Part shown: in pieces, positions 516 to 13,238 of the stretch
Numbering within the stretch: position 1 is the stretch's first letter
Layout of the letters: each line of letters begins with the position of its first letter
Source: a virus
Taxonomy: Duplodnaviria; Heunggongvirae; Uroviricota; Caudoviricetes
Strand: one strand, 5' to 3'
Length of the DNA: 14,678 nt
Virus record (IMG/VR): IMGVR_UViG_3300020059_000001
Location: 1-14,678 of that record
Program-made: the position numbers and the translations under genes
Notes under the pieces: model-generated
Seen by the model: only the letters and a program-made list of their open reading frames with translations
The model's database searches: none
Told to the model about the DNA's origin: nothing

Positions 516-943
516 TGCTGGTAGTGGATCACAGGTAGCTGTGGATGTCATGTCGTGGTGTGCACATGGTGCCACTTGGGACATGGGTGTGTCCTGGTAT
601 GTCCGGGTATCTACCCCTACCACTGTGTACCTCCGACGGGTACGCTTAGGGCAGTTCCACCGCACGACAGCACATGATCCACACAACTCCAGAGGGGACA
701 CGGACTCCATCGATGGGGCACCTACCCGCAGCACCTGAGGCAACCGCCCCTCGTGCACAGGGTAGGTAACCGGAGAGAGCAGCCGAGGGAAGCACCCGCC
801 ATGATCCACGGGTGGCACCCAAAGCACTACGCTTGACCGCCGTATCGATCATGAGAACCAGCCTAGAGCGCAACCACCCGCGCCGTCCCCACGATCACCA
901 AAAGTAGGTGATCACCCAAGCCACACGGGATGTGTGGCAGACA

Positions 944-1084
944 CCTAGCAAGCGTACCCCCGAGTGTTGAACCGTTGACTTGTCCGGCTCACGACCTGTC
1001 CACCCGAGGGAAGCGCTGCTAGGAGACGACCACCGCAGCTAGAGCAGTACGCCTAACGGGTGTAGTGCTGTGGCCACGGTGGTC
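944..1084 (+). promoter_or_regulatory. Two consecutive leader hairpins (944-1023, 1028-1084) before the first gene
   Basis: Closing stems CCTAGCA/TGCTAGG and GACCACCG/CGGTGGTC, with inner arms AGCAGTACGCC/GGTGTAGTGCT; followed by RBS AGAAAGG and ATG at 1100. Confidence 0.55.
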
Positions 1085-1099
1085 ACGAGAAAGGCAACC

Positions 1100-1231
1100 A
1101 TGACCGAACACATTGACACCACGAGCACCTGTCAGCGTTGCTCCGAAACGATCGAGCACGTTGCCGGCGTCAAAGATCCGTACTGGCGCCACTCCGGTGC
1201 CACGTCGCATCCCGCGCAGCCTACCCGGTAG
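1100..1231 (+). CDS. Small hypothetical protein (43 aa, CxxC and WRH motifs); not in the ORF track
   Basis: Manual translation MTEHIDTTSTCQRCSETIEHVAGVKDPYWRHSGATSHPAQPTR; RBS GAAAGG with accATG; the stop lies in the left arm of the next hairpin. Confidence 0.7.
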   Translation: MTEHIDTTSTCQRCSETIEHVAGVKDPYWRHSGATSHPAQPTR

Positions 1232-1292
1232 CACCCCTGGTCACATGATCGGCCCTTACGGGGGTCGGTCATGTAGCCACGGTGGCTACCGG
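1225..1292 (+). promoter_or_regulatory. Long intergenic hairpin (~30 bp stem, TACG loop)
   Basis: CCGGTAGC..ACATGATCGGCCCT-TACG-GGGGTCGGTCATGT..GCTACCGG with three G-U pairs in the upper stem; RBS follows immediately. Confidence 0.75.
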
Positions 1293-1303
1293 AGAGGACA
1301 ACC

Positions 1304-1522
1304 ATGATCCGCCAGCGTGTCCGGCACATGCTCATGACCGCGCTCATCCTGATCGGTGCTGTCAGCGTGGTGTACGTGGTAACGCACACCACGATCGACA
1401 CCTACTCCGGTGCCAACGGGCAACGGGGAGTTGTCATCGGATGGCAGGGACCGGGGCCGGTTCAGTGTTTCGGCGCTGAGTACGGCAGTCACCCCGGACC
1501 ATTCATGAACGTTGACTGCTGA
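1304..1522 (+). CDS. Small membrane/secreted protein (72 aa)
   Basis: RBS GAGAGGA; basic N-terminus then hydrophobic LMTALILIGAVSVVYVV. Confidence 0.75.
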   Translation: MIRQRVRHMLMTALILIGAVSVVYVVTHTTIDTYSGANGQRGVVIGWQGPGPVQCFGAEYGSHPGPFMNVDC

Positions 1523-1527
1523 CCCAC

Positions 1528-1579
1528 CCGTTGCGTTATCGAGCACCCGTCTCGCACGGGTGTTCGGCTACCCCAACGG
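1528..1579 (+). promoter_or_regulatory. Intergenic hairpin, CCGTTG...CAACGG family
   Basis: Basal stem CCGTTG/CAACGG, internal loop, upper stem TCGAGCACCCGT/ACGGGTGTTCGG with 2 G-U. Confidence 0.75.
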
Positions 1580-1590
1580 AGAGGCAAGCA

Positions 1591-1794
1591 ATGGACCCGA
1601 ACGAAACCCTACGCACCATGCGCGAAGCAATCGCACGGTACGACAACGCAATCAAGCTAGTCGACGCGGACGACGCAGCGAGTGATGTACTTGACGCAGC
1701 ACGAGCGCTTGACGAGTGGTTGTCACACGGAGGTTTCCTACCGAAAGCCTGGAAAGACAGTCTGTCTCGACCGGGCGAAAGTTTCCGACCCTAA
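1591..1794 (+). CDS. Conserved actinophage-type small helical protein (MDPN...LDEWLSxGGFLPxAW)
   Basis: Start trimmed from 1531 to ATG 1591 after RBS GAGAGG; the motif is recalled from actinophage hypothetical proteins (not searched). Confidence 0.8.
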   Translation: MDPNETLRTMREAIARYDNAIKLVDADDAASDVLDAARALDEWLSHGGFLPKAWKDSLSRPGESFRP

Positions 1795-1852
1795 CCGTTG
1801 CGTCAACCCGAGCGATCACCCCGTGGGGTGGTCGCTCGTATTGTCCCAACGG
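1795..1852 (+). promoter_or_regulatory. Intergenic hairpin, CCGTTG...CAACGG family
   Basis: Basal CCGTTG/CAACGG; upper stem CGAGCGATCACCC/GGGTGGTCGCTCG with 1 G-U; followed by RBS AAGGA. Confidence 0.75.
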
Positions 1853-1865
1853 AAGGACTCAACCC

Positions 1866-2168
1866 ATGCACGGTGCAACCGACCACATCACACGTTTCGA
1901 TGTGATCGAAACACTCACCGATCGTGTGATGAACTGGTACGGATTCACGTACGCATCGGACTACCGGATGCGACCGTACGCCATGCTCGCCGCTATCCAA
2001 CTACACGAGATGGGCGTGTCCCCGGACACGTTGACCACCGAACAAATCAAGACAGCAGACAAGGAAACCGGCGGCACCATGCTCGCCATGTGGAACACGC
2101 TGGCAGGCACCAACACCGACGTTCCGGGTCCGGAAATCAAGCCCGACGGTACCGACCATGAGAGCTAG
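1866..2168 (+). CDS. Hypothetical protein (100 aa)
   Basis: In frame with track ORF 1716..2168; ATG 1866 follows the hairpin and RBS AAGGA. Confidence 0.7.
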   Translation: MHGATDHITRFDVIETLTDRVMNWYGFTYASDYRMRPYAMLAAIQLHEMGVSPDTLTTEQIKTADKETGGTMLAMWNTLAGTNTDVPGPEIKPDGTDHES

Positions 2169-2340
2169 CCGACGGATCCGACGCGCTCTCGCGATAGCTG
2201 AGGCATTCGAGAGCGGCGCATCGGACTACCGGACCGATGCGCGTGCCGCGTACCGGCATCATCGGCGGTACCGGAAGTGGTATCACCTAGGCCAGCACTA
2301 CCAGCGTGCGCAACTCAGCCCACACACCCGCATCGGCTGA
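2158..2340 (+). CDS. Small basic hypothetical protein (60 aa)
   Basis: Overlaps the upstream stop by 11 nt; ends exactly at the next hairpin. Confidence 0.6.
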   Translation: MRASRRIRRALAIAEAFESGASDYRTDARAAYRHHRRYRKWYHLGQHYQRAQLSPHTRIG

Positions 2341-2459
2341 ACCGTTCGCATGGCTACCCGCATCACGTGATCTCGCTCCTCTTACCCTTGTCGTCCGCCG
2401 ATGGGCGGTCAACCCGTAAGAGCGAGGCACCGGGGTACGGGTAGCTGTGCAAGTGGTTC
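2339..2459 (+). ncRNA. ~120-nt long-stem structured element (processing site or small RNA candidate)
   Basis: Basal stem GAACCGTTCGCATGGCTACCCG / CGGGTAGCTGTGCAAGTGGTTC with 4 G-U pairs; inner stems CTCTTAC/GTAAGAG and TTG/CAA. Confidence 0.5.
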
Positions 2460-2534
2460 GGACCCTTTCGACGTATCCCATGGGTGCACGGGATCATCCC
2501 GCGCACCGATGCCTACGCACGAAAGGAAACGACC

Positions 2535-2675
2535 ATGGTTTTTCAGGCCATCCTCAGCAGTACCGGGCGGACCGTGGAAGTTCGCGCGGACTCTGCTCAC
2601 GCGTTCCGCTACCAGCTAGAACAGCGCGGTATCAAGGTTGCCGATGTTCGGCATTGCGTACAGAAGAAAGGGTGA
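2535..2675 (+). CDS. Small hypothetical protein (46 aa)
   Basis: Strong RBS GAAAGGAA before ATG 2535, in frame with track ORF 2484..2675; small hairpin at 2483-2507 upstream. Confidence 0.7.
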   Translation: MVFQAILSSTGRTVEVRADSAHAFRYQLEQRGIKVADVRHCVQKKG

Positions 2676-2681
2676 CATCAA

Positions 2682-2768
2682 GTGTTGCTCACCATTGCAG
2701 GGTTGCTGCTCATGCTTCCCCTGGCCGTCAAGATCACAAAGGCTGCGGTGTCCAAGATTCACCGCTGA
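2682..2768 (+). CDS. Single-pass membrane peptide (28 aa); not in the ORF track
   Basis: GTG start after AGAAAGGG; MLLTIAGLLLMLPLAVKITKAAVSKIHR, hydrophobic then basic. Confidence 0.55.
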   Translation: MLLTIAGLLLMLPLAVKITKAAVSKIHR

Positions 2769-2774
2769 CGCTTG

Positions 2775-2826
2775 CCTACACCACACGGCTAGCCCGTGTG
2801 GTCAGGGGAGGTATCAGCCACCCTCC
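2775..2826 (+). promoter_or_regulatory. Hairpin ACCACACGG/CCGTGTGGT followed by a UCAGCC-loop hairpin
   Basis: Second hairpin GGAGG-TATCAGCCAC-CCTCC at 2807-2826. Confidence 0.65.
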
Positions 2827-2843
2827 GGAAAGCGGAACACATC

Positions 2844-3053
2844 ATGCCGTTTCAAGAGCAAGTGTGGAACCTGTACCGGGAGTACATCGATGATGAGTGG
2901 TATTCCGGCTATGCCGGAACACTGGTCGATGTCACCGGGCACACGCCAACCGAATCGGAACGCATCGTTGCGTTTCTCACGTGGGCTGCAATAGTCCACC
3001 GGGTTGGGATCACGTTCGATGACATCGACGCGGTTCTGTACGGCCCTGAATAA
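2844..3053 (+). CDS. Small acidic hypothetical protein (69 aa)
   Basis: ATG 2844 after GGAAAGCGGA, in frame with track ORF 2796..3053. Confidence 0.7.
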   Translation: MPFQEQVWNLYREYIDDEWYSGYAGTLVDVTGHTPTESERIVAFLTWAAIVHRVGITFDDIDAVLYGPE

Positions 3054-3056
3054 GCG

Positions 3057-3140
3057 GAGTGATCATCGATCATAAGGGTCGATGATCGCTCGGCCTATTC
3101 AGCCTAAGGCCAGGAAGCGTGAGGCATTTCAGCCATGCCT
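3057..3140 (+). promoter_or_regulatory. Hairpin plus two UCAGCC-loop hairpins, the second sequestering the start codon
   Basis: GAGTGATCATCGA/TCGATGATCGCTC (3057-3091); GGCCT-ATTCAGCCTA-AGGCC (3092-3111); AGGCAT-TTCAGCC-ATGCCT (3122-3140). Confidence 0.75.
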
Positions 3141-4238
3141 AACAACGACATCGGCAGTCCAACGTCACTCGCAATGGTCACATGTGACCGATGCGGAAAC
3201 ACAGCGGACTACCCCGGCACCTACCCCGATTACATCACCCACCAGCCCGACCGGTCCGGCGCATTCTGCGCCAACTGTTGCATCGCGTGCGAAGAGTGCG
3301 GTGTAACCGCAACTAGTCACAACTCGTACCCGCACTACATCGAATACCGCGTCGGCCCCGGTGGGGACTATTGCGACGAGTGCGTCACCTACTGCGAAAA
3401 TTGCAGTGAGTACTACACGGGTGACGAGTGCCCCGACGTGTCCGACCACAGCTACGACGATGACGACGGTTCGTACCGCGACGGTAACGGACTCATCAAC
3501 AGCTACTCGTACAAGCCGTATCCCGAATTCCACGGGGTCGGTCCCGCGTTTCTCGGCGCGGAAATCGAAATCTCCGCACCGGGGCACGGATTCAATCAGG
3601 CTGCGCGGATCGCTGCGGACGGCCTTGGGTCCCTCGGGTACCTGAAAGAGGACTCGTCTATATCGCTCGGGTTCGAAATGGTCACGCACCCAATGACCTA
3701 CGCCTACGCGATGGACAACTTCCCGTGGCCGATGCTGCGAGAGCTACACGACCTAGGGTGCCGGGCAACGGAAGAGACCGGTATCCACGTGCACGTGTCG
3801 CGGGCCGGGTTCGCTAGCCCCTGTCACGTGTACCGGTGGATGAAATTTGTCTACCGCAACGCGCGGGAAGTGCAGGCTATCGCGCGGCGCCGGTCAAGAG
3901 ACTGGGCACCGTTCGATGCAAGTACCCGGCAACAGCAAAAGCACTACGCGAAAAACGATCGTGACCCGTACGGGGGCAGTGTCTACTGCCCGCGTTACTC
4001 AGCGATCAATTCGCAAAACGCGGAAACATTCGAGGTACGCGTCTTTGCGTCGTCGCTGAACGAACATGAAATCAAGGCAGCGCTAGCGCTTGTTGCTGCC
4101 ACCGTCGAGTACACGGCGCATCTGTCCGCCCATGACATCCTCCGCAACGACGGGTGGACATGGTCCGCGTTCATGCAATGGCTACCCAACAAGTACGCCC
4201 CGCTTCGCAGTGAGGCGGCCCGGCTATGTGTCTCCTAA
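3135..4238 (+). CDS. Putative amidoligase (COOH-NH2 ligase, Amidoligase_2-like) with N-terminal CxxC zinc-finger repeats
   Basis: Motifs GAEIE, KEDSSI..GFEMVTHP, TGIHVHVS, RYSAIN, TFEVRVF; several CxxC pairs in the first ~100 aa. Confidence 0.9.
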   Translation: MPNNDIGSPTSLAMVTCDRCGNTADYPGTYPDYITHQPDRSGAFCANCCIACEECGVTATSHNSYPHYIEYRVGPGGDYCDECVTYCENCSEYYTGDECPDVSDHSYDDDDGSYRDGNGLINSYSYKPYPEFHGVGPAFLGAEIEISAPGHGFNQAARIAADGLGSLGYLKEDSSISLGFEMVTHPMTYAYAMDNFPWPMLRELHDLGCRATEETGIHVHVSRAGFASPCHVYRWMKFVYRNAREVQAIARRRSRDWAPFDASTRQQQKHYAKNDRDPYGGSVYCPRYSAINSQNAETFEVRVFASSLNEHEIKAALALVAATVEYTAHLSAHDILRNDGWTWSAFMQWLPNKYAPLRSEAARLCVS

Positions 4239-5059
4239 CTTACCTACCGGCTGGAGTCCAGCCGGACACGGAAGCACTACGCAACGGGACACTGGTCAAT
4301 GAGGACGGCTTCGGATACGCCATCGTTGCCGACGGTCGGATCATCATCGGTAAGAGTCTCGACCCCGACAAAACTATCGACCGGTTCGCCGAGCTACGGA
4401 AAGCGAACCCCGACGGGCCGGCACTATTCCACTCCCGGATGTCAACACACGGGATCGTCGACAAAGACAACTGCCACCCGTTCATCGTGGGCGGCGACCG
4501 GCGGACCGTCTTCGGTCACAACGGAATCTTCCCGGCGAAAGCGCAACCGGCTAAGAACGACATTCGGTCCGATACCCGCATCGTGGCGGAAGACCTGATT
4601 CCGCGCGGTATGTGGGGTGGGATGCAACAATCCAAGAGCCGACGTCGGCTAGAACGATGGATGGGACCGTTCAACAAAGCGGTTATCCTGACCGTCAACC
4701 GCCGGTACCGGGAGCAAGCGTACATCCTAAATGAGGATGCCGGTATTTGGGATAAGGGCTCATGGTATAGCAACAGTGGTTTCAAGCCACCGTGGAAGCC
4801 ATCCAAGGATGATGGCTACTGGACTAAGGACCCGGAAACCGGGACGTGGGGCTTTACAAGTAGAAATTGGAATTACGGTGGCCATGACTGTCCGGTCTGT
4901 TTTACCGACGACGCGGTCGACCCGGTAACCAATATCTGCGGATTCTGTCACTGTTGCATTGACTGCTGTGAAACGGACGTCGACTGCCAGTGCTACATAC
5001 CCGCAGCACTTGACCGACTACCCGACCACATCCTGTCACAACTCGACCGCGACCGTTGA
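4226..5059 (+). CDS. Class II (Ntn) glutamine amidotransferase with a C-terminal Cys cluster
   Basis: N-terminal Met-Cys nucleophile, NEDGFG, FHSRMSTHG, NCHPF, HNG, RSDT; overlaps the amidoligase by 13 nt. Confidence 0.92.
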   Translation: MCLLTYLPAGVQPDTEALRNGTLVNEDGFGYAIVADGRIIIGKSLDPDKTIDRFAELRKANPDGPALFHSRMSTHGIVDKDNCHPFIVGGDRRTVFGHNGIFPAKAQPAKNDIRSDTRIVAEDLIPRGMWGGMQQSKSRRRLERWMGPFNKAVILTVNRRYREQAYILNEDAGIWDKGSWYSNSGFKPPWKPSKDDGYWTKDPETGTWGFTSRNWNYGGHDCPVCFTDDAVDPVTNICGFCHCCIDCCETDVDCQCYIPAALDRLPDHILSQLDRDR

Positions 5060-5106
5060 CCTAAGGAGGGTGCCCGTCACGCACGGGCACCCGATTAGCC
5101 CAACGG
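5053..5106 (+). promoter_or_regulatory. Intergenic hairpin, CCGTTG...CAACGG family
   Basis: Basal CCGTTG/CAACGG; upper stem GGGTGCCCGT-CACGC-ACGGGCACCC, sharing CCCGT-CWCGC-ACGGG with 1528-1579; TTAGCC at 5095. Confidence 0.75.
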
Positions 5107-5123
5107 GAAAGGGGAAACAAACC

Positions 5124-5324
5124 GTGAGCAGTAACACCGATCGCCAGGATCAATTGCGAATGGCTGCACTACGGGAAAGGGTCGCCATTGTCGCTGAGAT
5201 TCGGGCAATGGCTGATGAGGTACGGAACACATGGGACCCGAACCTAGGCCGCGCAATAGGCACGATTATTGACGACGTCGCCGACAAGATCAACACCTAC
5301 CGGTACCTCCATGAGGCCCGGTAA
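5124..5324 (+). CDS. Small helical hypothetical protein (66 aa)
   Basis: GTG 5124 after RBS GAAAGGGGA, in frame with track ORF 4959..5324. Confidence 0.7.
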   Translation: MSSNTDRQDQLRMAALRERVAIVAEIRAMADEVRNTWDPNLGRAIGTIIDDVADKINTYRYLHEAR

Positions 5325-5365
5325 CTACTCAGCCTAGGAAAGCATGAGGGCACTCAGCCATGCCT
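5298..5365 (+). promoter_or_regulatory. Hairpin plus two UCAGCC-loop hairpins (homologous to 3092-3140)
   Basis: TACCGG..CCTC-CAT-GAGG.CCGGTA (5298-5323); CTA-CTCAGCC-TAG; GGCA-CTCAGCCA-TGCC. Confidence 0.65.
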
Positions 5366-5608
5366 AACAACGCCAACAACACTCGTCCGCTACACGTCGT
5401 GGCGGCCGACGTCCGCCGACACTGGCCGAAAGTCAACTACGCGGCCGTCCCGTACCTCAACGCAATGGCGAAACTCAACAAGCTCACCGACATGTACGGC
5501 GCCGACCATGCCGACGACATCGTGCGGTACTTCCTAAGTAACGCAACCTCATGGCGCGGCGACGACGCACGGAGGGTCAAGGCCGAACTTAAGGCCATGC
5601 TCCGATGA
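5360..5608 (+). CDS. Conserved phage hypothetical protein (82 aa; AVPYLxAM...YFLxNAxxWRG..ARRVKAELK)
   Basis: Motif pattern recalled from a widespread phage family of unknown function; ATGA overlap with the next gene. Confidence 0.85.
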   Translation: MPNNANNTRPLHVVAADVRRHWPKVNYAAVPYLNAMAKLNKLTDMYGADHADDIVRYFLSNATSWRGDDARRVKAELKAMLR

Positions 5609-6205
5609 CCATCCGCCTACCGCAGGTAGCCAACATCAAACGCGTGTTCCGTAGCGCCACGTCCAACCAGCTAACCACTGGTCGGGCGTGGTATGCCGAC
5701 GCGCACGCGGGCCGCCGCGAATCTCGACCCCGACCACCCTAACCGGGCCGCCGGAATCATCGCTGCCCTAAGCCCCCAAACGTCGTGGCCACGCAACCTT
5801 GGGCTAGCAGCCCGGATGTACGCCGACGGGCGTCTGAACGGCGGTGCCCTCAGCCGGTCCGTCACACGGGCAACCGCCATCTACCACGGCGCCGAACCCC
5901 TCAACGTCCTACAAGGGCCGAAAACACGGGCGTTCTACCGACTCATTGCCGACCCCGACGACCCCGACACCGTGTGCATCGACCGACACGCCATAGACGT
6001 AGCTGTCGGGGAACGGCTATCCGTACTCGACCGGGAATCCCGCTACCCGCTCAACCGGCATAACTGGTATGAGCGGTTCGCCACCGTCTACCGGGCCGCC
6101 GCTCGCCAACTAGCCGTGACCCCGTCCGTCGTGCAGGCAACCACATGGACCGTACAAACCGACCGGTGGCGGGACATCCGCATCGGCGGACTAACCCACA
6201 TCTGA
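5605..6205 (+). pseudogene. DUF7178-like phage protein split by a +1 frameshift near 5709-5711 (real lesion or sequencing error)
   Basis: Frame from 5605 gives NIKRVFRSAT...GRAWYADAH then stops at 5742; the +1 frame continues with AAGIIAALSPQ, GPKTRAFY, IDRHA, VQATTW. The family assignment is from recall. Confidence 0.7.
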
Positions 6206-6218
6206 CCCGACGACTGAA

Positions 6219-6277
6219 CGCGCGGCGTGGCCAACAGCTACCAGCTGTTGACCGCGCGGTCTATTCAGCCACAGACC
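6219..6277 (+). promoter_or_regulatory. Hairpin plus UCAGCC-loop hairpin
   Basis: CGCGCGG..CAACAGCT-ACC-AGCTGTTG..CCGCGCG (6219-6258); GGTCT-ATTCAGCCAC-AGACC (6258-6277). Confidence 0.7.
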
Positions 6278-6295
6278 AGAGAGAAGGAAAGAACC

Positions 6296-7282
6296 ATGCC
6301 CGCAAATGTGGAATCAATGTTTTCCGTCCGGGCGATGCCCTGGCACCGGGAAGGTGTTGTGTTGGGTGAGTACCCGGGTAGTTGGGCCGAAGCGCGGAAG
6401 CTCGCCGGCCTGGAATGGGATCCGATCAGCGAACCCGTGTACGAGCTGCAAGGGATCACTGAGGACGGGCAGCCTACGTACGCCCCTAGTGAGGGGTGGA
6501 AGCGGATTGTCAGGTCGGATACCGGCGCGACGTTGTGGATCACCCAAGACACATACAAGATCATCGACCATCAGGCGATGGGCGAAATCGTGGAAGCGGT
6601 ACTCGCGCAGCCCAACGTCAAATGGGAAACCGCCGGCGTGCTGAACGGTGGCCGGGACGTGTGGGCGCTGTCCCGCCTCGACGAACCCGTCGAACTGCCC
6701 GGCGACGCCGGCACCCTCACCGTGCCGTACCTCGCGTTCACCACCCGGCACGGCCAGCCCGGCGCAGCCGTGCTCAGGGCAACCGCCGTCCGGATCGTAT
6801 GCGCCAACACGTTCCGGGCAGCCGAACTTGAAGGAGAACGGACCGGGAACACATTCGCGTTCAAGCACCGGGGTAACTGGCGGGACCGGCTCAGTGAGGC
6901 CCGTGAGGCCGTCACCGGCGCCCGCCGGGAAATGGCCGACTACGTAGGTTTGATGACCAACCTACTCGACATCAAGATCACGCCCAGGCAGCGGGAACTG
7001 TTCATCACCGCATTCATCCCGTCGCCGCCCGACGGCCTGGTCACCGACCGGGTAGTCCGCAACGTCGAAACCGCGCGGACCGCGCTGCGGGCAATCCTAG
7101 CCAGCGACACCACCGCCAACGTCGCCGACACCGGCTACGGGTTGGTACAAGGCGCCGGGGAATACCTCGACCACGTCCGCCGGTCGCGTAGCTGGGAAAC
7201 GAAATTGGGTCGCACGCTCATTAGACCCGAACCGTTGAAAGCAAAGGCTTTGAGTCTCGTCCGCGAGGTTGCGAACGCCTGA
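6296..7282 (+). CDS. DUF932 family phage/plasmid-like protein (TIGR03299 type)
   Basis: Characteristic MPANVESMFSVRxMPWHREG start, GLEWD, WETAGVLNGGRxVW, VRIVCANT, KHRGNW; RBS GAAGGAAAG before ATG 6296. Confidence 0.92.
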   Translation: MPANVESMFSVRAMPWHREGVVLGEYPGSWAEARKLAGLEWDPISEPVYELQGITEDGQPTYAPSEGWKRIVRSDTGATLWITQDTYKIIDHQAMGEIVEAVLAQPNVKWETAGVLNGGRDVWALSRLDEPVELPGDAGTLTVPYLAFTTRHGQPGAAVLRATAVRIVCANTFRAAELEGERTGNTFAFKHRGNWRDRLSEAREAVTGARREMADYVGLMTNLLDIKITPRQRELFITAFIPSPPDGLVTDRVVRNVETARTALRAILASDTTANVADTGYGLVQGAGEYLDHVRRSRSWETKLGRTLIRPEPLKAKALSLVREVANA

Positions 7283-7289
7283 GTAGACG

Positions 7290-7345
7290 GGATGGTCGGC
7301 AACCCCCGCAGGTTGCCGGCCGTCCGGCTTACTCAGCCGTAAGTC
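7290..7345 (+). promoter_or_regulatory. Hairpin plus UCAGCC-loop hairpin
   Basis: GGATGGTCGGCAACC-CCCGCA-GGTTGCCGGCCGTCC with 2 G-U; GGCTTAC-TCAGCC-GTAAGTC. Confidence 0.75.
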
Positions 7346-7363
7346 AGGAACTGGAGATTGATG

Positions 7364-7684
7364 ATGACCGGGCCACCGACACGGAACAACGTCAAGCTCC
7401 CGTTGACGCTGAAACGCCGGAAACGAGAGATCGAGGGTAGTGAGTACGGGGCGTTCGTACGGCGCGTACTGAGGGCTTACAGCCGCCGCGTCGCGGCCGG
7501 GGACGTCGAAACCCTCCGGGACCTCATAGCGCTGTCCAGTGAGATCGACCAGGCCGTGACCGACGCTGTCGCCGGCCTACGCACCCGAGGCTACTCGTGG
7601 AGTGAGATCGGCGACCGGCTCGGCGTGTCTAAGCAGGCAGCCCAGCAACGCTGGGGTAACCCGACCACCATCCGCAGGGCGTGA
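7364..7684 (+). CDS. HTH DNA-binding protein (sigma70 region 4-like; common in actinomycete mobile elements)
   Basis: C-terminal GYSWSEIGDRLGVSKQAAQQRWG; RRVAAGDVETL motif. The start could be 7358, 7361 or 7364; 7364 has the best spacing to GGAG. Confidence 0.88.
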   Translation: MTGPPTRNNVKLPLTLKRRKREIEGSEYGAFVRRVLRAYSRRVAAGDVETLRDLIALSSEIDQAVTDAVAGLRTRGYSWSEIGDRLGVSKQAAQQRWGNPTTIRRA

Positions 7685-7690
7685 CCGCGT

Positions 7691-7735
7691 GCCGGGCCGT
7701 GCCTTGCCCTGGCATGCCGAACCGTCCCATGCCGC
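7691..7735 (+). repeat. Degenerate 5-bp tandem array (NCCNN x9)
   Basis: gccgg gccgt gcctt gccct ggcat gccga accgt cccat gccgc. Confidence 0.8.
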
Positions 7736-7821
7736 TGCCCTGCACCTCCGGGGAGGCGCATTGACAACAACCGTACCCCCGACCCACCCGGACCACCTAC
7801 TATGTACCCACAGGAGGAACA

Positions 7822-8025
7822 GTGACCGTCATCCATCTCAAGTACAAACCCAACATATCCGCGTTCGTGGGCTGGACCGCGCCCGCCGGCGCGGCGATCC
7901 CGATCGCAGGCGACTGGGTCGAAGAGGCCGGGAGAACCTACAACGTCATGGGTCGGATCATCCGCGACCAGGGCCGCGAGGTCACCCTCATCGTCCGACC
8001 ATCCGACGTCAACGTGAGTTATTAG
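7822..8025 (+). CDS. Small beta-rich hypothetical protein (67 aa)
   Basis: GTG start after a perfect AGGAGG; high GC3. Confidence 0.8.
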   Translation: MTVIHLKYKPNISAFVGWTAPAGAAIPIAGDWVEEAGRTYNVMGRIIRDQGREVTLIVRPSDVNVSY

Positions 8026-8027
8026 CC

Positions 8028-8099
8028 ATGACCACCGTCTGCGTCATTGCAGCGCTCGTCGCTGCGGTAGCCGCCCTCAACATCATCACAATCCGGTAG
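8028..8099 (+). CDS. Hydrophobic micropeptide (23 aa)
   Basis: MTTVCVIAALVAAVAALNIITIR; starts 2 nt after the upstream stop, preceded by TTAGCC. Confidence 0.5.
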   Translation: MTTVCVIAALVAAVAALNIITIR

Positions 8100-8134
8100 G
8101 AAAACCGGCCCCAACAAATCGAACGAGGAAACAA

Positions 8135-8395
8135 ATGAGCAGCAACGAAATCCTGGAGTTTTACCTCGCCCCGGACTACGACGCACGTATCCACCGGGTC
8201 TACGTCAACGTCCCAGACGACTGGGACGACATGACCAAAGACCAACGCGAAAAGTTCGCCGACGAACAGGCGATCCAGTACCGCGACGAACACGTCGAAG
8301 CTGGCGGCATCATCCACACCTCGCTCGAAACGGCCCAGAGCGCTAACCGTGACTCGTGGGGCGACCAGCCCGACGAAGCCGAAGACTGGTTCTAA
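8135..8395 (+). CDS. Acidic hypothetical protein (86 aa)
   Basis: RBS GAGGAA; strong GC3 bias; D/E-rich. Confidence 0.85.
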   Translation: MSSNEILEFYLAPDYDARIHRVYVNVPDDWDDMTKDQREKFADEQAIQYRDEHVEAGGIIHTSLETAQSANRDSWGDQPDEAEDWF

Positions 8396-8466
8396 AACCA
8401 GGGGAACACGTCCCTCACGACACTTCACCTTCCCTTCCACGGAAAACGAAAGGAGGCGAAACGCTA

Positions 8467-9207
8467 ATGACTGAACAGGCCCGCTACGTCAGCCTGCACT
8501 ACTTCGCTGAGGCGTTGGGGCTACCCGTCGAGACGATGCGTAGCTACAACAAGCGGGCTAACCGGAACCGGCGCCGAGGCCGACCCTTGACCACGGACCT
8601 GCCGGTAGCTGACGCGCCGCCCGATGCTCAAACAGCAGGCCGGCCGCGGTGGCTACGGGAAACCGCCGACGCCTACATCACCCTCCGACTGGCAACGAAA
8701 CGAGGTAGGCACGTGGCAGCCGAACCGCGTCAACGCGACGAACACGGCCGCTTTCAACCCACCGCCCCCGACGAGCCGCTTCGTACGTCCGGTGGCGTCG
8801 AATTGACCAACGAGCTAGTCGAACAGCTCGCCGACGAGGCCGAAGCCGGCTACGACCCGGACAAGCTCGTGCCCCGCCCGACGGCTCAACGGGGGTCATC
8901 GGACGGACCGGTCATGGTCCGGCTATCCGCAGCCGAACGGGACCAGGCCGCCGAAGCACTGAGCAGCGTCATACCGACCGGCCTCGGGCTCCGACATCTG
9001 ATTACCGATGGGCCGCGCGGCTGGTCAGCGGCGATGGCACCCGACAGGGCCGACGAGATCGCCGAAGCGCTGACCGAGGCGTGGTCGAAGGAAGGCCACC
9101 GAACCTTCGAGCTGGCGCAACGGTTCGCCGAAGATCAGGAACCGGCCCGGCGCACGAAACGCGGCGGGTGGGCAGCCGGCGTCCGACCGGGAGACAGAAC
9201 GGAGTAA
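8467..9207 (+). CDS. Multi-domain putative DNA-binding protein (N-terminal excisionase/MerR-like HTH plus central CopG/RHH-associated segment)
   Basis: RBS AAAGGAGG before ATG 8467; FAEALGLPVETMRSY...DLP..D...GRPRW; LTNELVEQLADEAEAGYD...VMVRLS. Confidence 0.7.
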   Translation: MTEQARYVSLHYFAEALGLPVETMRSYNKRANRNRRRGRPLTTDLPVADAPPDAQTAGRPRWLRETADAYITLRLATKRGRHVAAEPRQRDEHGRFQPTAPDEPLRTSGGVELTNELVEQLADEAEAGYDPDKLVPRPTAQRGSSDGPVMVRLSAAERDQAAEALSSVIPTGLGLRHLITDGPRGWSAAMAPDRADEIAEALTEAWSKEGHRTFELAQRFAEDQEPARRTKRGGWAAGVRPGDRTE

Positions 9208-9262
9208 ACCCGAATGACCGAATCCACGCCGAGGACGACCCATTACCCGATTACGCGTAGGG

Positions 9263-9484
9263 TTAGGTAGACCGACCCCTCGCGACAGAAGAGGCCGCCG
9301 TCTCGGATCCCTCCGGGACGGCGGCCTTTTTGTCGTTGTTGGCTAGTTTCGCGGCGTGGCGGTGGCGTAGACCTGCTGCGCGGCGTTGCTGACGGTCGAT
9401 GCGGTCGGCGCGTAGGCGTTCGCGGCGGGCTTTCCAGGCGTTGTGCTGGTCAACCCAATGATCGGTGACCTCCGGCATGTCCAT
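9263..9484 (-). CDS. Possible small basic protein (73 aa), perhaps leaderless
   Basis: High GC3 from ATG 9484; TACCAT 6 nt upstream of the ATG on the minus strand; no RBS; the 3' part runs through the terminator hairpin. Confidence 0.4.
   Translation of the reverse strand: MDMPEVTDHWVDQHNAWKARRERLRADRIDRQQRRAAGLRHRHAAKLANNDKKAAVPEGSETAASSVARGRST
9292..9331 (+). terminator. Intrinsic terminator
   Basis: Stem AGGCCGCCGTCTCGGA/TCCGGGACGGCGGCCT followed by a T tract. Confidence 0.85.
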
Positions 9485-9539
9485 GCATCTATGGTAGCCG
9501 GCTTCGACTCCCGGCATCTGAAATTTTATGGACCTGTGG

Positions 9540-9568
9540 ATGACACAGCATCCCGTGAGATGTATGGT
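9540..9568 (+). promoter_or_regulatory. SigA/HrdB-type promoter candidate
   Basis: ATGACA - 17 nt - TATGGT, downstream of the terminator and ~36 nt upstream of ATG 9605. Confidence 0.55.
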
Positions 9569-9604
9569 TTGCCATGTATCCCATCCCATCCCAGGGGGTT
9601 TCCC

Positions 9605-9808
9605 ATGGCCATCCTTGTCGTGCTCACACTCGTCGTCCTGTTCACCGGATCACTACTCGGCAACCTGCTCCAACACTGGGCCATCCGCGACGCCAACGGC
9701 CACAACCGATGCCTACGCCGCTGGATCAACGACAACAGGAGCGTCCCCGACAACCTCATCGACGTCATCGAACGCGGCGGATCGATCCGGCTCACCCGCA
9801 ACCGGTAA
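9605..9808 (+). CDS. Small membrane protein (67 aa)
   Basis: RBS AGGGGG; N-terminal hydrophobic AILVVLTLVVLFTGSLLG. Confidence 0.75.
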   Translation: MAILVVLTLVVLFTGSLLGNLLQHWAIRDANGHNRCLRRWINDNRSVPDNLIDVIERGGSIRLTRNR

Positions 9809-9822
9809 AGGGGAAAGCAGCC

Positions 9823-10050
9823 ATGACCAACATGCTCATCGGCAGCCCGGACGCCCTCGCCGAGATCACCAAAATTATCGACCTCACCGCCGCCGACCTC
9901 GCCCAGGACTACCTCAGCCCCGAACAACGCCGCCAGCAGTTCGCCTACCTCACCATCGCCATCCAGATCCGGCGTAGCTACCCGCCGACCTACACCCCCG
10001 AACAGGAAGCCCATGCACTCGTCGCCGCCGCCCAAGGCCAAATCTCATGA
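9823..10050 (+). CDS. Hypothetical protein (75 aa)
   Basis: RBS AAGGGGA; in frame with track ORF 9574..10050; ATGA overlap with the next gene. Confidence 0.8.
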   Translation: MTNMLIGSPDALAEITKIIDLTAADLAQDYLSPEQRRQQFAYLTIAIQIRRSYPPTYTPEQEAHALVAAAQGQIS

Positions 10051-10445
10051 CCGGCGACGACTACACCCGACCCGCCGTCACCGTGCAACTAACAACCAGG
10101 GAACGGATGTTCGCGCTACGGGTACTCCGCGCAGCCGGTGTGCCATGGCGAACCCGGCGACTCATCGCCGCCGACACTCTATGGGCATTCGAAGCCAGCC
10201 ACCTCGCCGACGCCCTCGACCAGGCCAGCACCAAAACCCGGCCACTGTCACACACCCGCCGGCAAACCCGCCGACTCGCCGCCCACTACCGGGCCGCCGC
10301 CGGCACCGCGAAACGGGCACCTATCAACCCCGCCGAATGGCCCGAAGCCCCCCGCACCCGTTCGGTGCCAATCGAAACGCTCATCGAACAAACAGCTACC
10401 GCCCACTGGGCGGCCATCCCACCTAGCCCGGAGGTAACACCATGA
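10047..10445 (+). CDS. Hypothetical protein (132 aa)
   Basis: ATGA overlaps at both ends. Confidence 0.75.
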   Translation: MTGDDYTRPAVTVQLTTRERMFALRVLRAAGVPWRTRRLIAADTLWAFEASHLADALDQASTKTRPLSHTRRQTRRLAAHYRAAAGTAKRAPINPAEWPEAPRTRSVPIETLIEQTATAHWAAIPPSPEVTP

Positions 10446-11623
10446 GGCAGCTGAAGATCGCCGTCATCGGCGGCTCACTGGTCGGCCCGACCGCGGAACT
10501 GACCTTCCGCCGGCACGGCTTCACCGACGTCACCACGTACGAAGCGTCCCGCACCCCGCACCCGCAGTCCGGTGGTGTGATGGGCCTCCGTCAGCAAGGC
10601 ATCGAAATCCTCAAGGACGCCGGTGTCGACGTCGCCTCGACCGTCGCGCTCGACTCGCGGGACACCATCTCCTGGGACATGGACGGTGGTGTCGAACCCA
10701 GGCAGCGGGGACGATCTACCCTGCCGGGGCAGGTTACATCCTGGGACAAACTTCACCACGCGCTCGGGCAGCTCGTCGATATCCAACTCGGTCATCGGCT
10801 CGTCGCCCTCGACCACGACGGCGAACGGGCACAGCTCGCCTTCACGAAAGGCCACACCGACGAAGCCGACCTGGTCGTCTTCGCCGACGGTCGCAAATCC
10901 ACCGGCCGGGCTTTACTCGACCCGACCCGCCACCTGCATTACAGCGGATACTGCATGTGGCGAGGCCTGATCGAACTACCCACGAACTCGGCGATCGAAG
11001 GGTTCAGCCGGTTCTACGACACGCCACGCGGGATACTGTTCTCCATCACCGCGCCAATCAAAAACGATGGCCGGTCATACTGGGAACTGTCCACCAACAT
11101 GTCGGAAGCGGCGTTCACCCGGATCGTCGGGAAGCCACCCACCGAACACGCATTCCTGCTTTCCGGACAGATCACACCATTGATCAGGCGAACCATCGAC
11201 GCGCTCGCCACCGCATACCTACCGGCACAGTTCCGCGACGTGGTCCACGACACCGACCAGATCATGGGGATTCCCATCATCGACTTACCACTGGCCAAGC
11301 AGACCGCTTGGCCACTGGGCAACGCTCACGCGGCTCTCGTCGGCGACGCCGCCCAAACCGTTCGGCTACAAACCGGCTGGGGACTCAACGCCGGCATCGG
11401 CCAAGTCCACTGCCTCGCCGGCCGACTCGCCAACGGAATGAACCTCGACGCAGCCGTCGCAGACTGGTCAACCGCCTCGATGGCCGCCATCGGCCCCTGG
11501 GTCGAACTAGGCCGGCGAAGGGCCGCCGCGACCAACCTCGGTGTCTACGAGCCCGTCAGACCCGGATACACCGCCGTCCCGTCCAATGATATTTGGTCAC
11601 CACCCCAATGGATCTTGAGCTAA
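10442..11623 (+). CDS. FAD-dependent monooxygenase (class A aromatic hydroxylase, 2,6-dihydroxypyridine hydroxylase-like)
   Basis: Rossmann motif KIAVIGGSLVG, DLVVFADG, YSGYxxWRG, LVGDAA; RBS GGAGG. Confidence 0.88.
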   Translation: MRQLKIAVIGGSLVGPTAELTFRRHGFTDVTTYEASRTPHPQSGGVMGLRQQGIEILKDAGVDVASTVALDSRDTISWDMDGGVEPRQRGRSTLPGQVTSWDKLHHALGQLVDIQLGHRLVALDHDGERAQLAFTKGHTDEADLVVFADGRKSTGRALLDPTRHLHYSGYCMWRGLIELPTNSAIEGFSRFYDTPRGILFSITAPIKNDGRSYWELSTNMSEAAFTRIVGKPPTEHAFLLSGQITPLIRRTIDALATAYLPAQFRDVVHDTDQIMGIPIIDLPLAKQTAWPLGNAHAALVGDAAQTVRLQTGWGLNAGIGQVHCLAGRLANGMNLDAAVADWSTASMAAIGPWVELGRRRAAATNLGVYEPVRPGYTAVPSNDIWSPPQWILS

Positions 11624-11629
11624 AGCAAG

Positions 11630-11694
11630 GAAAGGTCAGGTCGAGAAAAGGGCAACCTTCTCTGAAAACGCCCTCCCCCTCGACCTGACCTTTC
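11630..11694. terminator. 16-bp perfect inverted repeat after the monooxygenase; terminator or processing hairpin
   Basis: GAAAGGTCAGGTCGAG (11630-11645) / CTCGACCTGACCTTTC (11679-11694), with inner AGGGC/GCCCT. Confidence 0.65.
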
Positions 11695-11710
11695 GTGCCC
11701 TGCCGCTGCT

Positions 11711-11770
11711 GCCACGCCGCGCCCAGCCGGACCGGGCCGGGCCGAGCCCAGCCACGCCTCGCCTCACCGC
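11711..11770 (+). repeat. Degenerate 5-bp tandem array (RCCNN x12)
   Basis: gccac gccgc gccca gccgg accgg gccgg gccga gccca gccac gcctc gcctc accgc; CCGCTGCTGCC at both ends (11703, 11767). Confidence 0.85.
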
Positions 11771-11853
11771 TGCTGCCGCACCACTCACCGCATCCGAAGA
11801 TCCGGCTCCATCGACAATTATAGCTTGCCGAAATTCACGAACAGGAGATCATC

Positions 11854-12390
11854 ATGCACGATGCTGTCAACTACCAGACTGCCCGCGTCAGCGAAACTGC
11901 CCCAGTCAAGCCCACACCTACGCGGTGGCCGGTAACCACCGGGGAGCTACGAGGGCGACTCCAACCCGTTACTTTTATGCGTCTTCTGGAACCGGTCGAA
12001 AACCCGGACGGGCCTACCCTCACCGCCGACAACATCGTCAGCGTGCAGCATTGGGGACCGGGTGTCGTCGTCATCAACGCAATGCAGTCAGGCTACCAAC
12101 CGCTCATGATCGACGATAGAACCCTTCACGCCAAATGGATACACCTGAACGCCGAAGTAACAACAGCCGAGCTGCGGGCCAAACTGCAACCAATCGTCTT
12201 CGGCCGGCTCGTCGAGGACGTCGCCGACAACAGCGACCCCACCATCACCCTGCCTGCACGTACCCCGGTAGCGCTCGTGTTCTGGGGCGGTGGCATGACC
12301 GCCGTCACCGACGTACTCACCGGCCAACACGTCGTCGCCCGAACCAACACGGTTCACGTCGACTGGCACCACGGCCTAGTCATCGACTGA
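11854..12390 (+). CDS. Hypothetical protein with an internal tandem domain duplication (178 aa)
   Basis: RBS AGGAG; VTTGELRGRLQP..F.RL.E.V repeated as VTTAELRAKLQP..F.RL.E.V. Confidence 0.85.
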   Translation: MHDAVNYQTARVSETAPVKPTPTRWPVTTGELRGRLQPVTFMRLLEPVENPDGPTLTADNIVSVQHWGPGVVVINAMQSGYQPLMIDDRTLHAKWIHLNAEVTTAELRAKLQPIVFGRLVEDVADNSDPTITLPARTPVALVFWGGGMTAVTDVLTGQHVVARTNTVHVDWHHGLVID

Positions 12391-12397
12391 GCCGGCG

Positions 12398-12466
12398 GGG
12401 TGGTCGGCAGTGTTCCACTTCCCCGGAACACTGCTGGCCGCCCGGTCCGCTCAGGACCACTTAGCC
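12398..12466 (+). promoter_or_regulatory. Intergenic hairpin homologous to 7290-7325, then a small hairpin and TTAGCC
   Basis: GGTCGGCAGTGTTCC/GGAACACTGCTGGCC with 2 G-U; shares TGGTCGGCA with 7290-7325. Confidence 0.65.
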
Positions 12467-12489
12467 ATCCCCGAGGAGATAACCGACTC

Positions 12490-12855
12490 ATGAACGACAA
12501 TCGTCCGCTTCCAACCAACGTAATCGAAGCACTACAAGCGACGAAGGAAGTCCTGCAACGGCAGGGCCGCATACGGCGCACCCGCTTCCACTACGGCAAG
12601 GTGTGCCTCGTCGGCGCCATAGACGTTGCTGTCGGCATGCACAGCCCAACCGGCACGTACCTGGCCCCCCCGACCAGCCAGCTCGAACTCAGCATACGGA
12701 CGTTACACATCCTCAACAGGGGTGCACGGTTCACAACCCGCCACGACAACGCCATCGAGTTCAACGACAATCCCGACACCACCGACGGGCAGGTGTTTGC
12801 GTTGATCGACCAGGCCATCGCAGCTGAAGGCGCCCCACCGGAAAGGAACCCTTAA
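12490..12855 (+). CDS. DUF6197-like protein (121 aa)
   Basis: CLVGAI and FND...T..QV.ALID.AI pattern recalled for DUF6197; RBS GAGGAG before ATG 12490. Confidence 0.7.
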   Translation: MNDNRPLPTNVIEALQATKEVLQRQGRIRRTRFHYGKVCLVGAIDVAVGMHSPTGTYLAPPTSQLELSIRTLHILNRGARFTTRHDNAIEFNDNPDTTDGQVFALIDQAIAAEGAPPERNP

Positions 12856-12860
12856 AGATC

Positions 12861-13238
12861 ATGATCTGGTTGTTGGCTGCCTCGGGCTATCTGATCGTCG
12901 GCGGGATCGTAGCCCGCCGGACGTTCGTCAAATTCATCGACGAAAATGGTCGCAACGCCATCCAGGACATCGGCACCAACGGCGTCCGGATCGGCCCCCC
13001 TCGCGACCCGTTCGCCGGCCCATTCTGGACCGGTGCCTTCTGGCCCGTTACCATCCCCGGCGTTGTAGCGATGTGGCTGTGGCAACACATCATCACCCGG
13101 CCCACACCAGCTGAACGGCGAGCCGCCGCAGACCAACGCATAGCCCACATGAGGGAACTGCTATCCGCGGAGTACGAGCCGGTCGTCGACCAGATGCGCG
13201 CCGAAGGGCTCCCCGTCGACATAGCCGACACACCATGA
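12861..13238 (+). CDS. Membrane protein (125 aa, 2 TM segments)
   Basis: Hydrophobic MIWLLAASGYLIVGGIVA and FWTGAFWPVTIPGVVAMWLW; ATGA overlap with the next gene. Confidence 0.8.
   Translation: MIWLLAASGYLIVGGIVARRTFVKFIDENGRNAIQDIGTNGVRIGPPRDPFAGPFWTGAFWPVTIPGVVAMWLWQHIITRPTPAERRAAADQRIAHMRELLSAEYEPVVDQMRAEGLPVDIADTP

Follow-up and report, generated by a model that had tools for sequence, protein, structure and literature searches.

Stable hairpins without U tracts between the genes of an uncultured actinobacteriophage-like virus are selected on the coding strand and lie at variable gene junctions

Introduction

Hairpins between co-transcribed genes are known from several phages and bacteria, and here we analyse a series of them in a virus of the Caudoviricetes. 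The DNA studied (the window) is the first 14,678 nucleotides (nt) of the IMG/VR record IMGVR_UViG_3300020059_000001, which has 108,404 nt, a GC content of ∼62% and an estimated completeness of 94%. The window carries ∼30 small plus-strand genes across positions 1100-14074, and from position 944 to about 7345 a long plus-strand hairpin sits in front of almost every gene.

Several described systems resemble this array in part. In phage T7 the RNase III sites R0.3, R0.5, R1, R1.1 and R1.3 lie between the early genes. Hairpins with internal loops and ∼20-28 bp, which amounts to roughly two turns of A-form helix, fall in the size class of RNase III substrates. The repetitive extragenic palindromic (REP) sequences and bacterial interspersed mosaic elements (BIME) of enterobacteria are dispersed palindromes between co-transcribed genes, where they keep 3' exonucleases off the upstream mRNA and adjust the relative expression of the genes. 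REPs are chromosomal, short and highly uniform and are bound by known host proteins. The promoter early stem-loop (PeSL) cassettes of T4-like myoviruses are defined by a sigma70-type early promoter (-35, N17, -10) joined to a stem-loop (PMC2839356; PMC4122927). Cluster K mycobacteriophages carry start-associated sequences (SAS) and extended versions of them (ESAS). The ESAS are shared by genes that belong to different families, and no function has been assigned to them yet (PMC3203893).

The array is a member of none of these systems. With the T7 sites it shares hairpins of 50-65 nt with ∼20 bp or more and internal loops, the location between consecutive, presumably polycistronic early genes, related sequence families, the lack of a U tract and an upstream RNA that would keep a 3' hairpin. 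The structures found here, 20-28 bp with bulges or internal loops between the genes of one block, have the architecture of a T7-type site. They differ in the GC-rich actinomycete host, the stop codon in the base of the stem, the conserved outer clamps with exchangeable inner stems and the association with gene re-ordering, and cleavage is here a proposal. Like REP and BIME elements the hairpins are dispersed, repeated palindromes between genes that are probably co-transcribed, but they belong to several sequence families within a lineage of phages and integrative elements. With the PeSL cassettes they have in common that repeated stem-loops border small accessory early genes, are concentrated at sites of differing gene content or order among relatives, and are plausible substrates for homologous recombination that shuffles single genes (PMC2839356; PMC4122927); unlike PeSLs, the spacers of the array lack the early promoter. 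The likeness to the ESAS consists in the actinobacteriophage background, the non-structural arm, the single orientation and the imperfect inverted repeats with a short spacer just 5' of the translation start of some genes (PMC3203893). However, the array hairpins have 20-28 bp compared to 17-bp arms, begin at the upstream stop codon and are far more variable in their inner sequence. The 13-bp SAS GGGATAGGAGCCC, located 3-8 bp before the start, gave no match with up to one mismatch. With 2-3 mismatches we found 11 matches compared to 4.6 expected, none of them at starts; this number exceeds chance only marginally, and 2 of 200 shuffles also reached it. Judged by analogy, the array would be closest to the T7 RNase III sites and REP stabilisers in mechanism, to the T4-type PeSLs in evolution and to the Cluster K ESAS in taxon.

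We consider it highly probable that the hairpins function at the RNA level. In particular we propose, with a probability of about 0.5, that they are stem-loops of the sense RNA which punctuate a polycistronic early transcript, define or protect 3' ends and double as recombination joints.

Results

Hairpins of the early gene block

The structures are real. Folding with RNA parameters gave 13 strong plus-strand hairpins with energies between -29.5 and -63.9 kcal/mol and z-scores between -3.3 and -7.9, and for each of them only 0-1 of 200 dinucleotide shuffles folded equally well. By comparison, the best single hairpin in coding windows of 75 nt from the same block averaged -17.4 ± 5.8 kcal/mol, and the 5% tail began at -27.4 kcal/mol. 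The stems have 20-28 bp with bulges or internal loops, apart from the hairpin at 2338 with 48 bp. An initial annotation made from the letters alone had placed a hairpin before almost every gene, and the 13 strong structures (all z ≤ -3.3 against shuffles) bear this out. The hairpin it listed at 5298 dropped out: the structure at 5298-5323 is weak (-12.1 kcal/mol, 10 bp) and falls in the last codons of the gene 5124-5324. It is followed by an unpartnered TACTCAGCC at 5326-5334. A scan for perfect stems missed most of the hairpins because the stems contain G-U pairs and bulges, and a genome-wide window scan of the minimum free energy (MFE) was uninformative because the GC content of 62% raises the background. 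A search of positions 900-7400 with the Rfam covariance models returned no match even at E ≤ 1.

An imperfect long hairpin at 944-1023 (-31.3 kcal/mol, z -3.28, 25 bp) lies in the leader of the first gene (1100-1231) and folds better on the minus strand. The hairpin at 1028-1085 (-41.0 kcal/mol, z -7.85, 23 bp, 3 G-U) ends 14 nt 5' of the ATG at 1100. At 1229-1288 the structure (-36.2 kcal/mol, z -4.93, 24 bp, 4 G-U; minus strand -29.0 kcal/mol) extends from the stop codon TAG at 1229 to 15 nt 5' of the ATG at 1304. The hairpin at 1520-1586 (-30.5 kcal/mol, z -3.69, 23 bp) starts at the stop codon TGA at 1520 and has the clamp CCGTTG (1528)/CAACGG (1574-1579); its 3' arm adjoins the Shine-Dalgarno sequence of the gene at 1591. 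The same CCGTTG/CAACGG clamp closes the hairpin at 1795-1852 (-36.7 kcal/mol, z -6.63, 23 bp), whose inner stem GAGCGATCA.. is common to the one at 3057. The very long hairpin at 2338-2460 (-63.9 kcal/mol, z -6.19, 48 bp, 6 G-U) starts at the stop codon TGA at 2338, and a second one at 2464-2526 (-33.8 kcal/mol, z -6.28, 24 bp; minus strand slightly better) ends 8 nt 5' of the ATG at 2535.

Further downstream, the hairpin at 2764-2818 (-32.5 kcal/mol, z -4.98, 21 bp, 3 G-U) is closed by the clamp GCTGA (with the stop codon)/TCAGC and has TATCAGCC at 2812-2819. At 3042-3111 (-42.8 kcal/mol, z -7.07, 28 bp; minus strand -36.6 kcal/mol) the clamp CTGAATA/TATTCAG is followed by GCC, with TATTCAGCC at 3096-3104. 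The hairpin at 5053-5106 (-33.1 kcal/mol, z -6.62, 20 bp) again has the CCGTTG/CAACGG clamp, with the stop codon TGA at 5057 inside it. The feature at 6214-6270 consists of a hairpin at 6214-6268 (-29.5 kcal/mol, z -5.20, 21 bp) with the clamp CTGAA/TTCAG and of TATTCAGCC at 6262-6270, 34 nt 5' of the DUF932 ATG. The hairpin at 7275-7340 (-45.6 kcal/mol, z -7.20, 27 bp, 3 G-U; minus strand -41.2 kcal/mol) is closed by CTGAGTAG (with the stop codon)/CTTACTCAG and has TACTCAGCC at 7330-7338. Finally, the hairpin at 12388-12453 (-52.4 kcal/mol, z -7.51, 27 bp, 4 G-U; minus strand -37.6 kcal/mol, z -3.39) belongs to the next operon and starts at the stop codon TGA at 12388. Beyond position 7360 the spacers at 7682, 8097 and 8393 have weak structures or none, and elsewhere in the genome few short spacers carry a hairpin close to the stop codon.

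The sequence families named initially, CCGTTG..CAACGG, GAGYGATCA..TGRTCGCTCG and TGGTCGGCA, were all recovered at their sites. Family A (1528, 1795 and 5053) has the clamp CCGTTG..(C)CCAACGG with the 3' arm running into the Shine-Dalgarno sequence. Family B (3046, 6213 and 7279) has the clamp CTGARTA..TAYTCAG followed by CC, with the variant GCTGA..TCAGC at 2765. The inner stems swap between these clamps: GAGYGATCA..TGRTCGCTCG occurs at 1810 and 3057, i.e. in one family A and one family B hairpin. TGGTCGGCA is common to the inner stems at 7293 and 12401. Leaders are also repeated. The stretch 1066-1102 recurs at 1269-1306 and holds GCCACGGTGG...AACCATG, with GCCACGGTGG occurring genome-wide only at 1073 and 1276.

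A second leader together with the first codons (..TCAGCCATGCCTAACAAC, MPNN) at 3115-3150 is duplicated at 5340-5375 with 83% identity. Over 3096-3150 and 5326-5375 the amidoligase gene and an unrelated open reading frame (ORF) of 82 amino acids share a leader with two TCAGCC copies as well as identical first codons ATGCCTAACAAC (MPNN). This duplication has the appearance of a scar left by recombination at the border of a cassette. A separate observation concerns the gene-less spacer 2338-2534, which comprises 194 nt with two hairpins. One of these spans 123 nt and has 48 bp, and the spacer may specify a small structured RNA instead of a simple punctuation mark.

Selection on the plus strand

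G-U pairs distinguish the two strands of a hairpin, and the initial annotation had counted many of them on the plus strand against few C-A mismatches. This count held up: the plus-strand MFE structures contain 31 G-U pairs in total, and a strand-neutral stem finder, which scores G:T and A:C alike and counts both, found 14 G:T and 4 A:C pairs in the window alone. For 84 intergenic hairpins of the window and its relatives we counted 58 G:T and 23 A:C pairs, compared to 55 G:T and 106 A:C pairs in coding controls (Fisher p = 3.6e-8, binomial p = 2e-12); the A/C-rich plus strand predicts a ratio of ∼0.5:1. A C-to-T mutation bias on the coding strand is excluded because the coding strand is C-rich and T-poor. 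The excess thus goes beyond composition and mutation bias, and the structures are selected in a single-stranded plus molecule.

The asymmetry in raw folding energy, also expected by the initial annotation, is present but modest and weaker than it had implied. The z-scores favour the plus strand in 11 of 13 cases (sign test p = 0.02), the MFE in 9 of 13, and the summed MFE is -509 kcal/mol for the plus compared to -481 kcal/mol for the minus strand. In the relatives the minus strand even folds better on average by MFE, because it is G-rich. Raw MFE is therefore a poor strand test and was replaced by the count of G:T against A:C pairs, which is what carries the strand argument.

Conservation and covariation in relatives

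The relatives were obtained with the DUF932 protein in a scan of Joint Genome Institute (JGI) metagenomes. We analysed the best 80 of 310, which show 66-75% amino-acid identity and come nearly all from soils or peat. Among their plus-strand spacers a single hairpin of ≤ -30 kcal/mol occurs in 88 of 198 unique sequences compared to 25 of 198 coding controls of matched length. Of the 66 unique relatives, 61 have a hairpin of ≤ -25 kcal/mol (on average -36 kcal/mol) immediately 3' of the DUF932 stop codon, and these hairpins fall into at least six unrelated sequence families.

Within two families RNAalifold detected compensatory double changes between GC and AU, in three pairs for A1 and two pairs for A2, and nearly all one-sided changes within hairpin families lead to G-U. 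A compensatory change from A-T to G-C also separates the window clamps TGAATA/TATTCA (3047/3101) and TGAGTA/TACTCA (7280/7335). Position and structure are kept while the sequence turns over, which is the signature of a structural function. The initial proposal of selection on a single-stranded plus molecule thus draws on the G:T excess, the compensatory changes and the retained position alike.

The family GCCGGGCCTGGGGGA-loop-TCCCCCGGCCCGGC is found at numerous different gene junctions, among them those flanking DUF932 on either side, and is usually followed by CAGCCA, a CCCTACCTCGCG box and the Shine-Dalgarno sequence AGGAGA. Clustering of hairpins by shared 8-mers lumps GC-rich families and was used qualitatively only. 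It is also present in Mb-scale chromosomal contigs of metagenome-assembled genomes (MAGs) of uncultured Actinomycetes (L101-L108), hence the lineage includes integrated elements and its hosts are actinomycetes. In a number of relatives (L026, L043, L046, L057, L059 and others) GCCGGGCCTGGGGGA..TCCCCCGGCCCGGC is often preceded on the plus strand by an A-rich run, e.g. ACAAAAAT. The minus strand then reads a hairpin followed by a U tract, a possible terminator of antisense transcripts.

Gene order at the hairpin junctions

For the comparison of gene order we defined protein families across the loci as single-linkage BLAST clusters. The same single-copy families appear in permuted order among the relatives, with DUF932 before or after families 4 and 1. 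Examples are the orders 6-10-DUF932-3-17-4-1-12-2, 6-9-14-4-13-DUF932-5-1-3-2-7-8 and 6-9-4-5-1-11-12-DUF932-2-7-8. In these relatives a hairpin is present at 96 of 254 variable junctions, but at only 2 of 35 that are constant across loci, e.g. 2-7 and 7-8 (p = 8e-5). The hairpins of the window bound single genes or tightly overlapping pairs: there is none between the amidoligase and GATase genes (3135-5059), and DUF932 is flanked by two family B elements. The idea of shufflable cassettes gains support from the permuted order, the hairpins at variable junctions and the occurrence of one family at many junctions. Of the PeSL analogy in the initial annotation, the enrichment at variable junctions stands, whereas the promoter half does not, as there is no -35/-10 pair in the spacers.

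U tracts, promoters and termination

The U tracts are indeed absent, as the initial annotation had stated. In the 10 nt 3' of each hairpin we counted 0-3 Ts, mostly 0-1. Of the features of a canonical intrinsic terminator, the GC-rich hairpin is there (-29 to -64 kcal/mol, 20-48 bp), whereas the U tract of ∼7-9 nt is missing. A terminator scan of the plus strand returned a single canonical intrinsic terminator, at 9288-9331, which closes the hairpin block with a 20-bp stem followed by TTTTTGTCGTTGTTG and forms an internal contrast to the U-less hairpins. (This terminator looks bidirectional, and a possible minus-strand ORF of 73-108 amino acids overlaps it.) The promoter search gave a similar picture. 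No sigma70/SigA-like -35/-10 promoter was found in the spacers of 900-7400; they contain only two TANNNT hexamers, both within stems and neither with a -35 box. Reading TAYTCA as a -10 or TTCAGC as a -35 box was rejected, because no matching second box lies at a suitable distance from either. The stretch from about 1100 to 9288 has no internal promoter or terminator, and the only good SigA-like promoter on the plus strand, ATGACA-17-TATGGT at 9540-9568, serves the next operon soon after the canonical terminator.

These data bear on a different reading of the hairpins as U-poor intrinsic terminators or attenuators, like those of GC-rich actinomycetes and the early region of phage phiC31, with expression falling stepwise along the block and unrecognised phage-specific promoters that may re-start transcription. 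U-less stable hairpins in an actinophage early region are a trait shared with phiC31, whose early terminators (Ingham et al., 1995) reportedly have no poly-U tails. The array hairpins are GC-rich, very stable and directly behind stop codons, and the TAYTCAGCC box 31-39 nt 5' of four starts could belong to a promoter of another type. Term-seq in Streptomyces likewise placed 3' ends near the stem base of long, very stable hairpins with just 3-4 Us in the following 10 nt, which may reflect termination or exonuclease trimming (PMC12207403). The array resembles these actinomycete 3' ends in having very stable hairpins behind genes without a real U tract, but the hairpins come after nearly every gene within an apparent single operon, without room or signal for re-initiation and with a canonical terminator at the block end as contrast.

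Other observations point away from termination. The tails are poorer in T than even the Streptomyces range, and the same block uses a canonical U-tract terminator at 9288. Purified mycobacterial RNA polymerase requires a U tract: in its absence the recombinant enzyme failed to terminate, also when NusA or NusG was present, and the authors point out that a hairpin at the end of a gene need not be a terminator (PMC3993855). After six of the hairpins a promoter cannot fit because only 4-17 nt remain before the start codon. Since the spacers also lack a SigA-type promoter, efficient termination is unlikely. We searched the genome for a phage-encoded RNA polymerase, sigma region 2 and RNase III and found none, and host enzymes must therefore act. 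Overall we regard the terminator reading as unlikely.

The TCAGCC element

Several hairpins are associated with a short conserved sequence. The exact 9-mer TAYTCAGCC has four copies on the plus strand of the genome, all intergenic in this block and 31-39 nt 5' of a start codon. TCAGCC occurs seven times in 423 nt of spacers (2766-7360) compared to 63 times on the whole plus strand, a ∼28-fold enrichment (Poisson p = 9e-9). CAGCC follows 30 of 118 strong hairpins compared to a background of 7.5%. In L018, the nearest relative, TTCAGC is found twice in front of DUF932 and lies at a distance (-36) similar to that in the window. Among the IMG/VR relatives, which reach ≤38% identity, L006 has neither motif.

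Such conservation would fit a role as operators, bound by a regulator that recognises a specific RNA sequence or by an antisense RNA, with UCAGCC as the recognised element. A terminating ribosome would open the basal clamp, UCAGCC would come to lie in a small alternative loop and the bound phage or host factor would control the next gene. The enrichment, the partnerless copy at 5326 and the copies in relatives agree with this idea, and differing small stems (GGCC/GGCC, GGTC/GACC, CTTAC/GTAAG, GGAGG/CCTCC) can flank UCAGCC, although stems of 4-5 bp arise easily by chance. However, the MFE and centroid structures strongly favour the long hairpin, in which TAYTCAG is paired with CTGARTA in the stop-codon arm, and the conservation of TCAGCC is partly explained because its pairing partner contains the stop codon TGA. 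The motif is missing from family A hairpins, and we identified neither a candidate binding protein nor an antisense promoter; the sole minus-strand promoter-like site nearby (5293-5265) is within chance expectation. We consider operators improbable.

Two further ideas concern the same element. The RNase E motif RN|CNU matches by reading just two of five TAYTCAGCC copies and was rejected. Actinobacterial 16S rRNA presumably has GGCUGG near its 3' end, and its pairing with (C/U)CAGCC is speculation only.

Position relative to the coding sequences

The hairpins are placed between translation signals. Nine of them begin 0-3 nt from a stop codon, which often forms part of the basal stem (TAGC..GCTA, GCTGA..TCAGC, CTGAGTAG..CTTACTCAG, TGAGC..GCTCA), and six end 4-17 nt 5' of the next start codon, adjoining the Shine-Dalgarno sequence. 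The placement from the stop codon to the next ribosome-binding site described initially was thus confirmed for most of them. This geometry could indicate translational devices with the stop codon at the 5' and the Shine-Dalgarno sequence or start codon at the 3' base, which would serve coupling, shunting or insulation of the ribosome-binding site. The hairpin at 1520-1586, whose basal pairs take in part of the Shine-Dalgarno sequence, fits this idea. Yet the geometry is not general: the hairpins of the TAYTCAGCC group end 20-32 nt 5' of the start codon, and in the relatives the median distance to the start is 39 nt. It is also partly forced by the compact spacers. Translational devices are therefore a doubtful explanation, with a low probability.

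Sites acting as DNA

It is most improbable that the hairpins are DNA-level sites, i.e. integron-like folded single-strand recombination sites, cruciforms or the Frpo-type single-stranded DNA promoters suggested by the initial annotation: gene-sized units in one orientation, bounded by hairpins with conserved ends and variable centres, permuted gene order and a G:T bias that also fits a folded plus strand of DNA would be in line with this, but the clamps CCGTTG..CAACGG and CTGARTA..TAYTCAG are unlike attC RYYYAAC...GTTRRRY, the stems have no -35/-10 pair, a cruciform would show no preference of G:T over A:C, a single-stranded stage is not obvious for a 108-kb double-stranded DNA phage and the hairpins are placed relative to translation signals. 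As candidate attC sites the clamps were rejected, with GTT and AAC in reversed order and only a single copy (GCCCAAC at 5100) fitting RYYYAAC. An integron cassette system was likewise rejected, as the only tyrosine recombinase is the single Phage_integrase match at 52,762-53,094 (52.7 kb), ∼45 kb away. The selected molecule is thus probably RNA instead of single-stranded DNA.

Genes and genome context

The gene calls are our own and use a simple codon model, so start codons are possibly off by a few codons. Identified plus-strand genes are Amidoligase_2 (3135-4238), which overlaps a GATase_4-like gene (4226-5059), DUF7178 (5605/5693-6205), DUF932 (6296-7282), a small helix-turn-helix protein (7361-7684), a flavin adenine dinucleotide (FAD) monooxygenase (10442-11623) and DUF6197 (12490-12855). 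The DUF7178 gene is found in two frames, with profile positions 14-43 in 5605-5742 and 53-191 in the next frame at 5693-6205; a frameshift or an error of sequencing could account for this, as could a programmed shift near 5700-5740. A minus-strand tRNA-Met (CAT) at 14124-14199 marks the switch from the plus-strand block to minus-strand genes.

The cultured phages closest by DUF932 infect Microbacterium, Streptomyces, Mycobacterium and Arthrobacter, with an identity of just 35-37%, and we therefore assign the sequence to an uncultured actinobacteriophage-like virus. There was no near-identity match among GenBank phages and no close relative in GenBank phages or IMG/VR.

The left end (1-1100) is 1.1 kb without genes and packed with repeats: 17-mers of the GTGGTGTGTGCAC type occur six times and TGGTCACCCT(C/G) three times, and 357-375/497-515 form a perfect inverted repeat of 19 bp. 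This left end may function as an origin or in regulation, or represent an end of the genome, and we expect the promoter of the hairpin block to be located within it. At 11628-11696, 3' of the monooxygenase operon, we observed a different hairpin with a 16-bp stem, a 37-nt loop and -38 kcal/mol. Between it and the gene at 11854 are ∼100 nt of C-rich direct repeats (GCCGCTGCTGCC.., CCGGGCCGGGCCGAGCC), and for the whole spacer 11622-11853 the minus strand folds far better (-118.7 compared to -80.2 kcal/mol).

Discussion

In the mechanism that we propose, one long early transcript would run from upstream of position 1100 to the terminator at 9288-9331, with similar hairpins in the next operon. A hairpin would form directly behind each stop codon and serve as the 3'-end element of the upstream gene-sized RNA segment. 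It may either block 3'-to-5' exonucleases following an endonuclease cut in the single-stranded spacer or itself be the processing site of a double-strand-specific nuclease of the RNase III type, like in the T7 early genes. Each gene or tightly coupled pair would thereby gain its own RNA stability and dosage, and the hairpins would be leaky terminators at most. In a second role, the dispersed repeats with the conserved clamps CCGTTG..CAACGG and CTGARTA..TAYTCAG-CC would supply homology through which single genes could be exchanged and re-ordered between related phages and integrated elements.

Several points weigh against these stem-loops of the sense RNA as the full explanation. The G:T excess would also fit a folded plus strand of DNA, and the minus-strand gene blocks held only three hairpins, too few to see whether the bias follows transcription. 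Many re-ordered junctions in the relatives are 4-nt gene overlaps without a hairpin, so the hairpins are not required for shuffling. Given the Streptomyces 3' ends at hairpins with 3-4 Us, partial termination stays live if the host is of that type. Finally, TAYTCAGCC/(C/T)CAGCC is conserved in sequence and stands partnerless at 5326, which a bare stability element cannot explain.

A more far-reaching reading, which we rate as rather improbable, is that soil actinomycete phages and integrative elements have a dedicated gene-cassette system whose joints are the hairpins, combined with a translation-sensitive RNA switch. The folded plus strand, with the clamp and TAYTCAGCC/(C)CAGCC, would be recognised by a recombinase or an RNA-guided factor, and single early genes would be excised and re-inserted as cassettes. 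The switch would be sensitive to translation because the stop codon sits in the clamp.

Actinobacteriophages carry a wealth of uncharacterised functions, e.g. for anti-defence and host takeover, in their early accessory genes, whose expression is little understood. Soil metagenomes contain the lineage described here in abundance, it is found integrated in genomes of Actinomycetes as well, and it supplies over 100 natural variants of the hairpins with covariation. This makes it a test bed for the long-standing question of whether U-less GC-rich hairpins in high-GC bacteria serve termination or RNA processing and protection. If the sense-RNA stem-loops do provide stability per gene and marks for exchange, this would explain how single genes move within the arrays with their expression retained, and the hairpins would be usable as portable insulators in the engineering of actinomycete operons.

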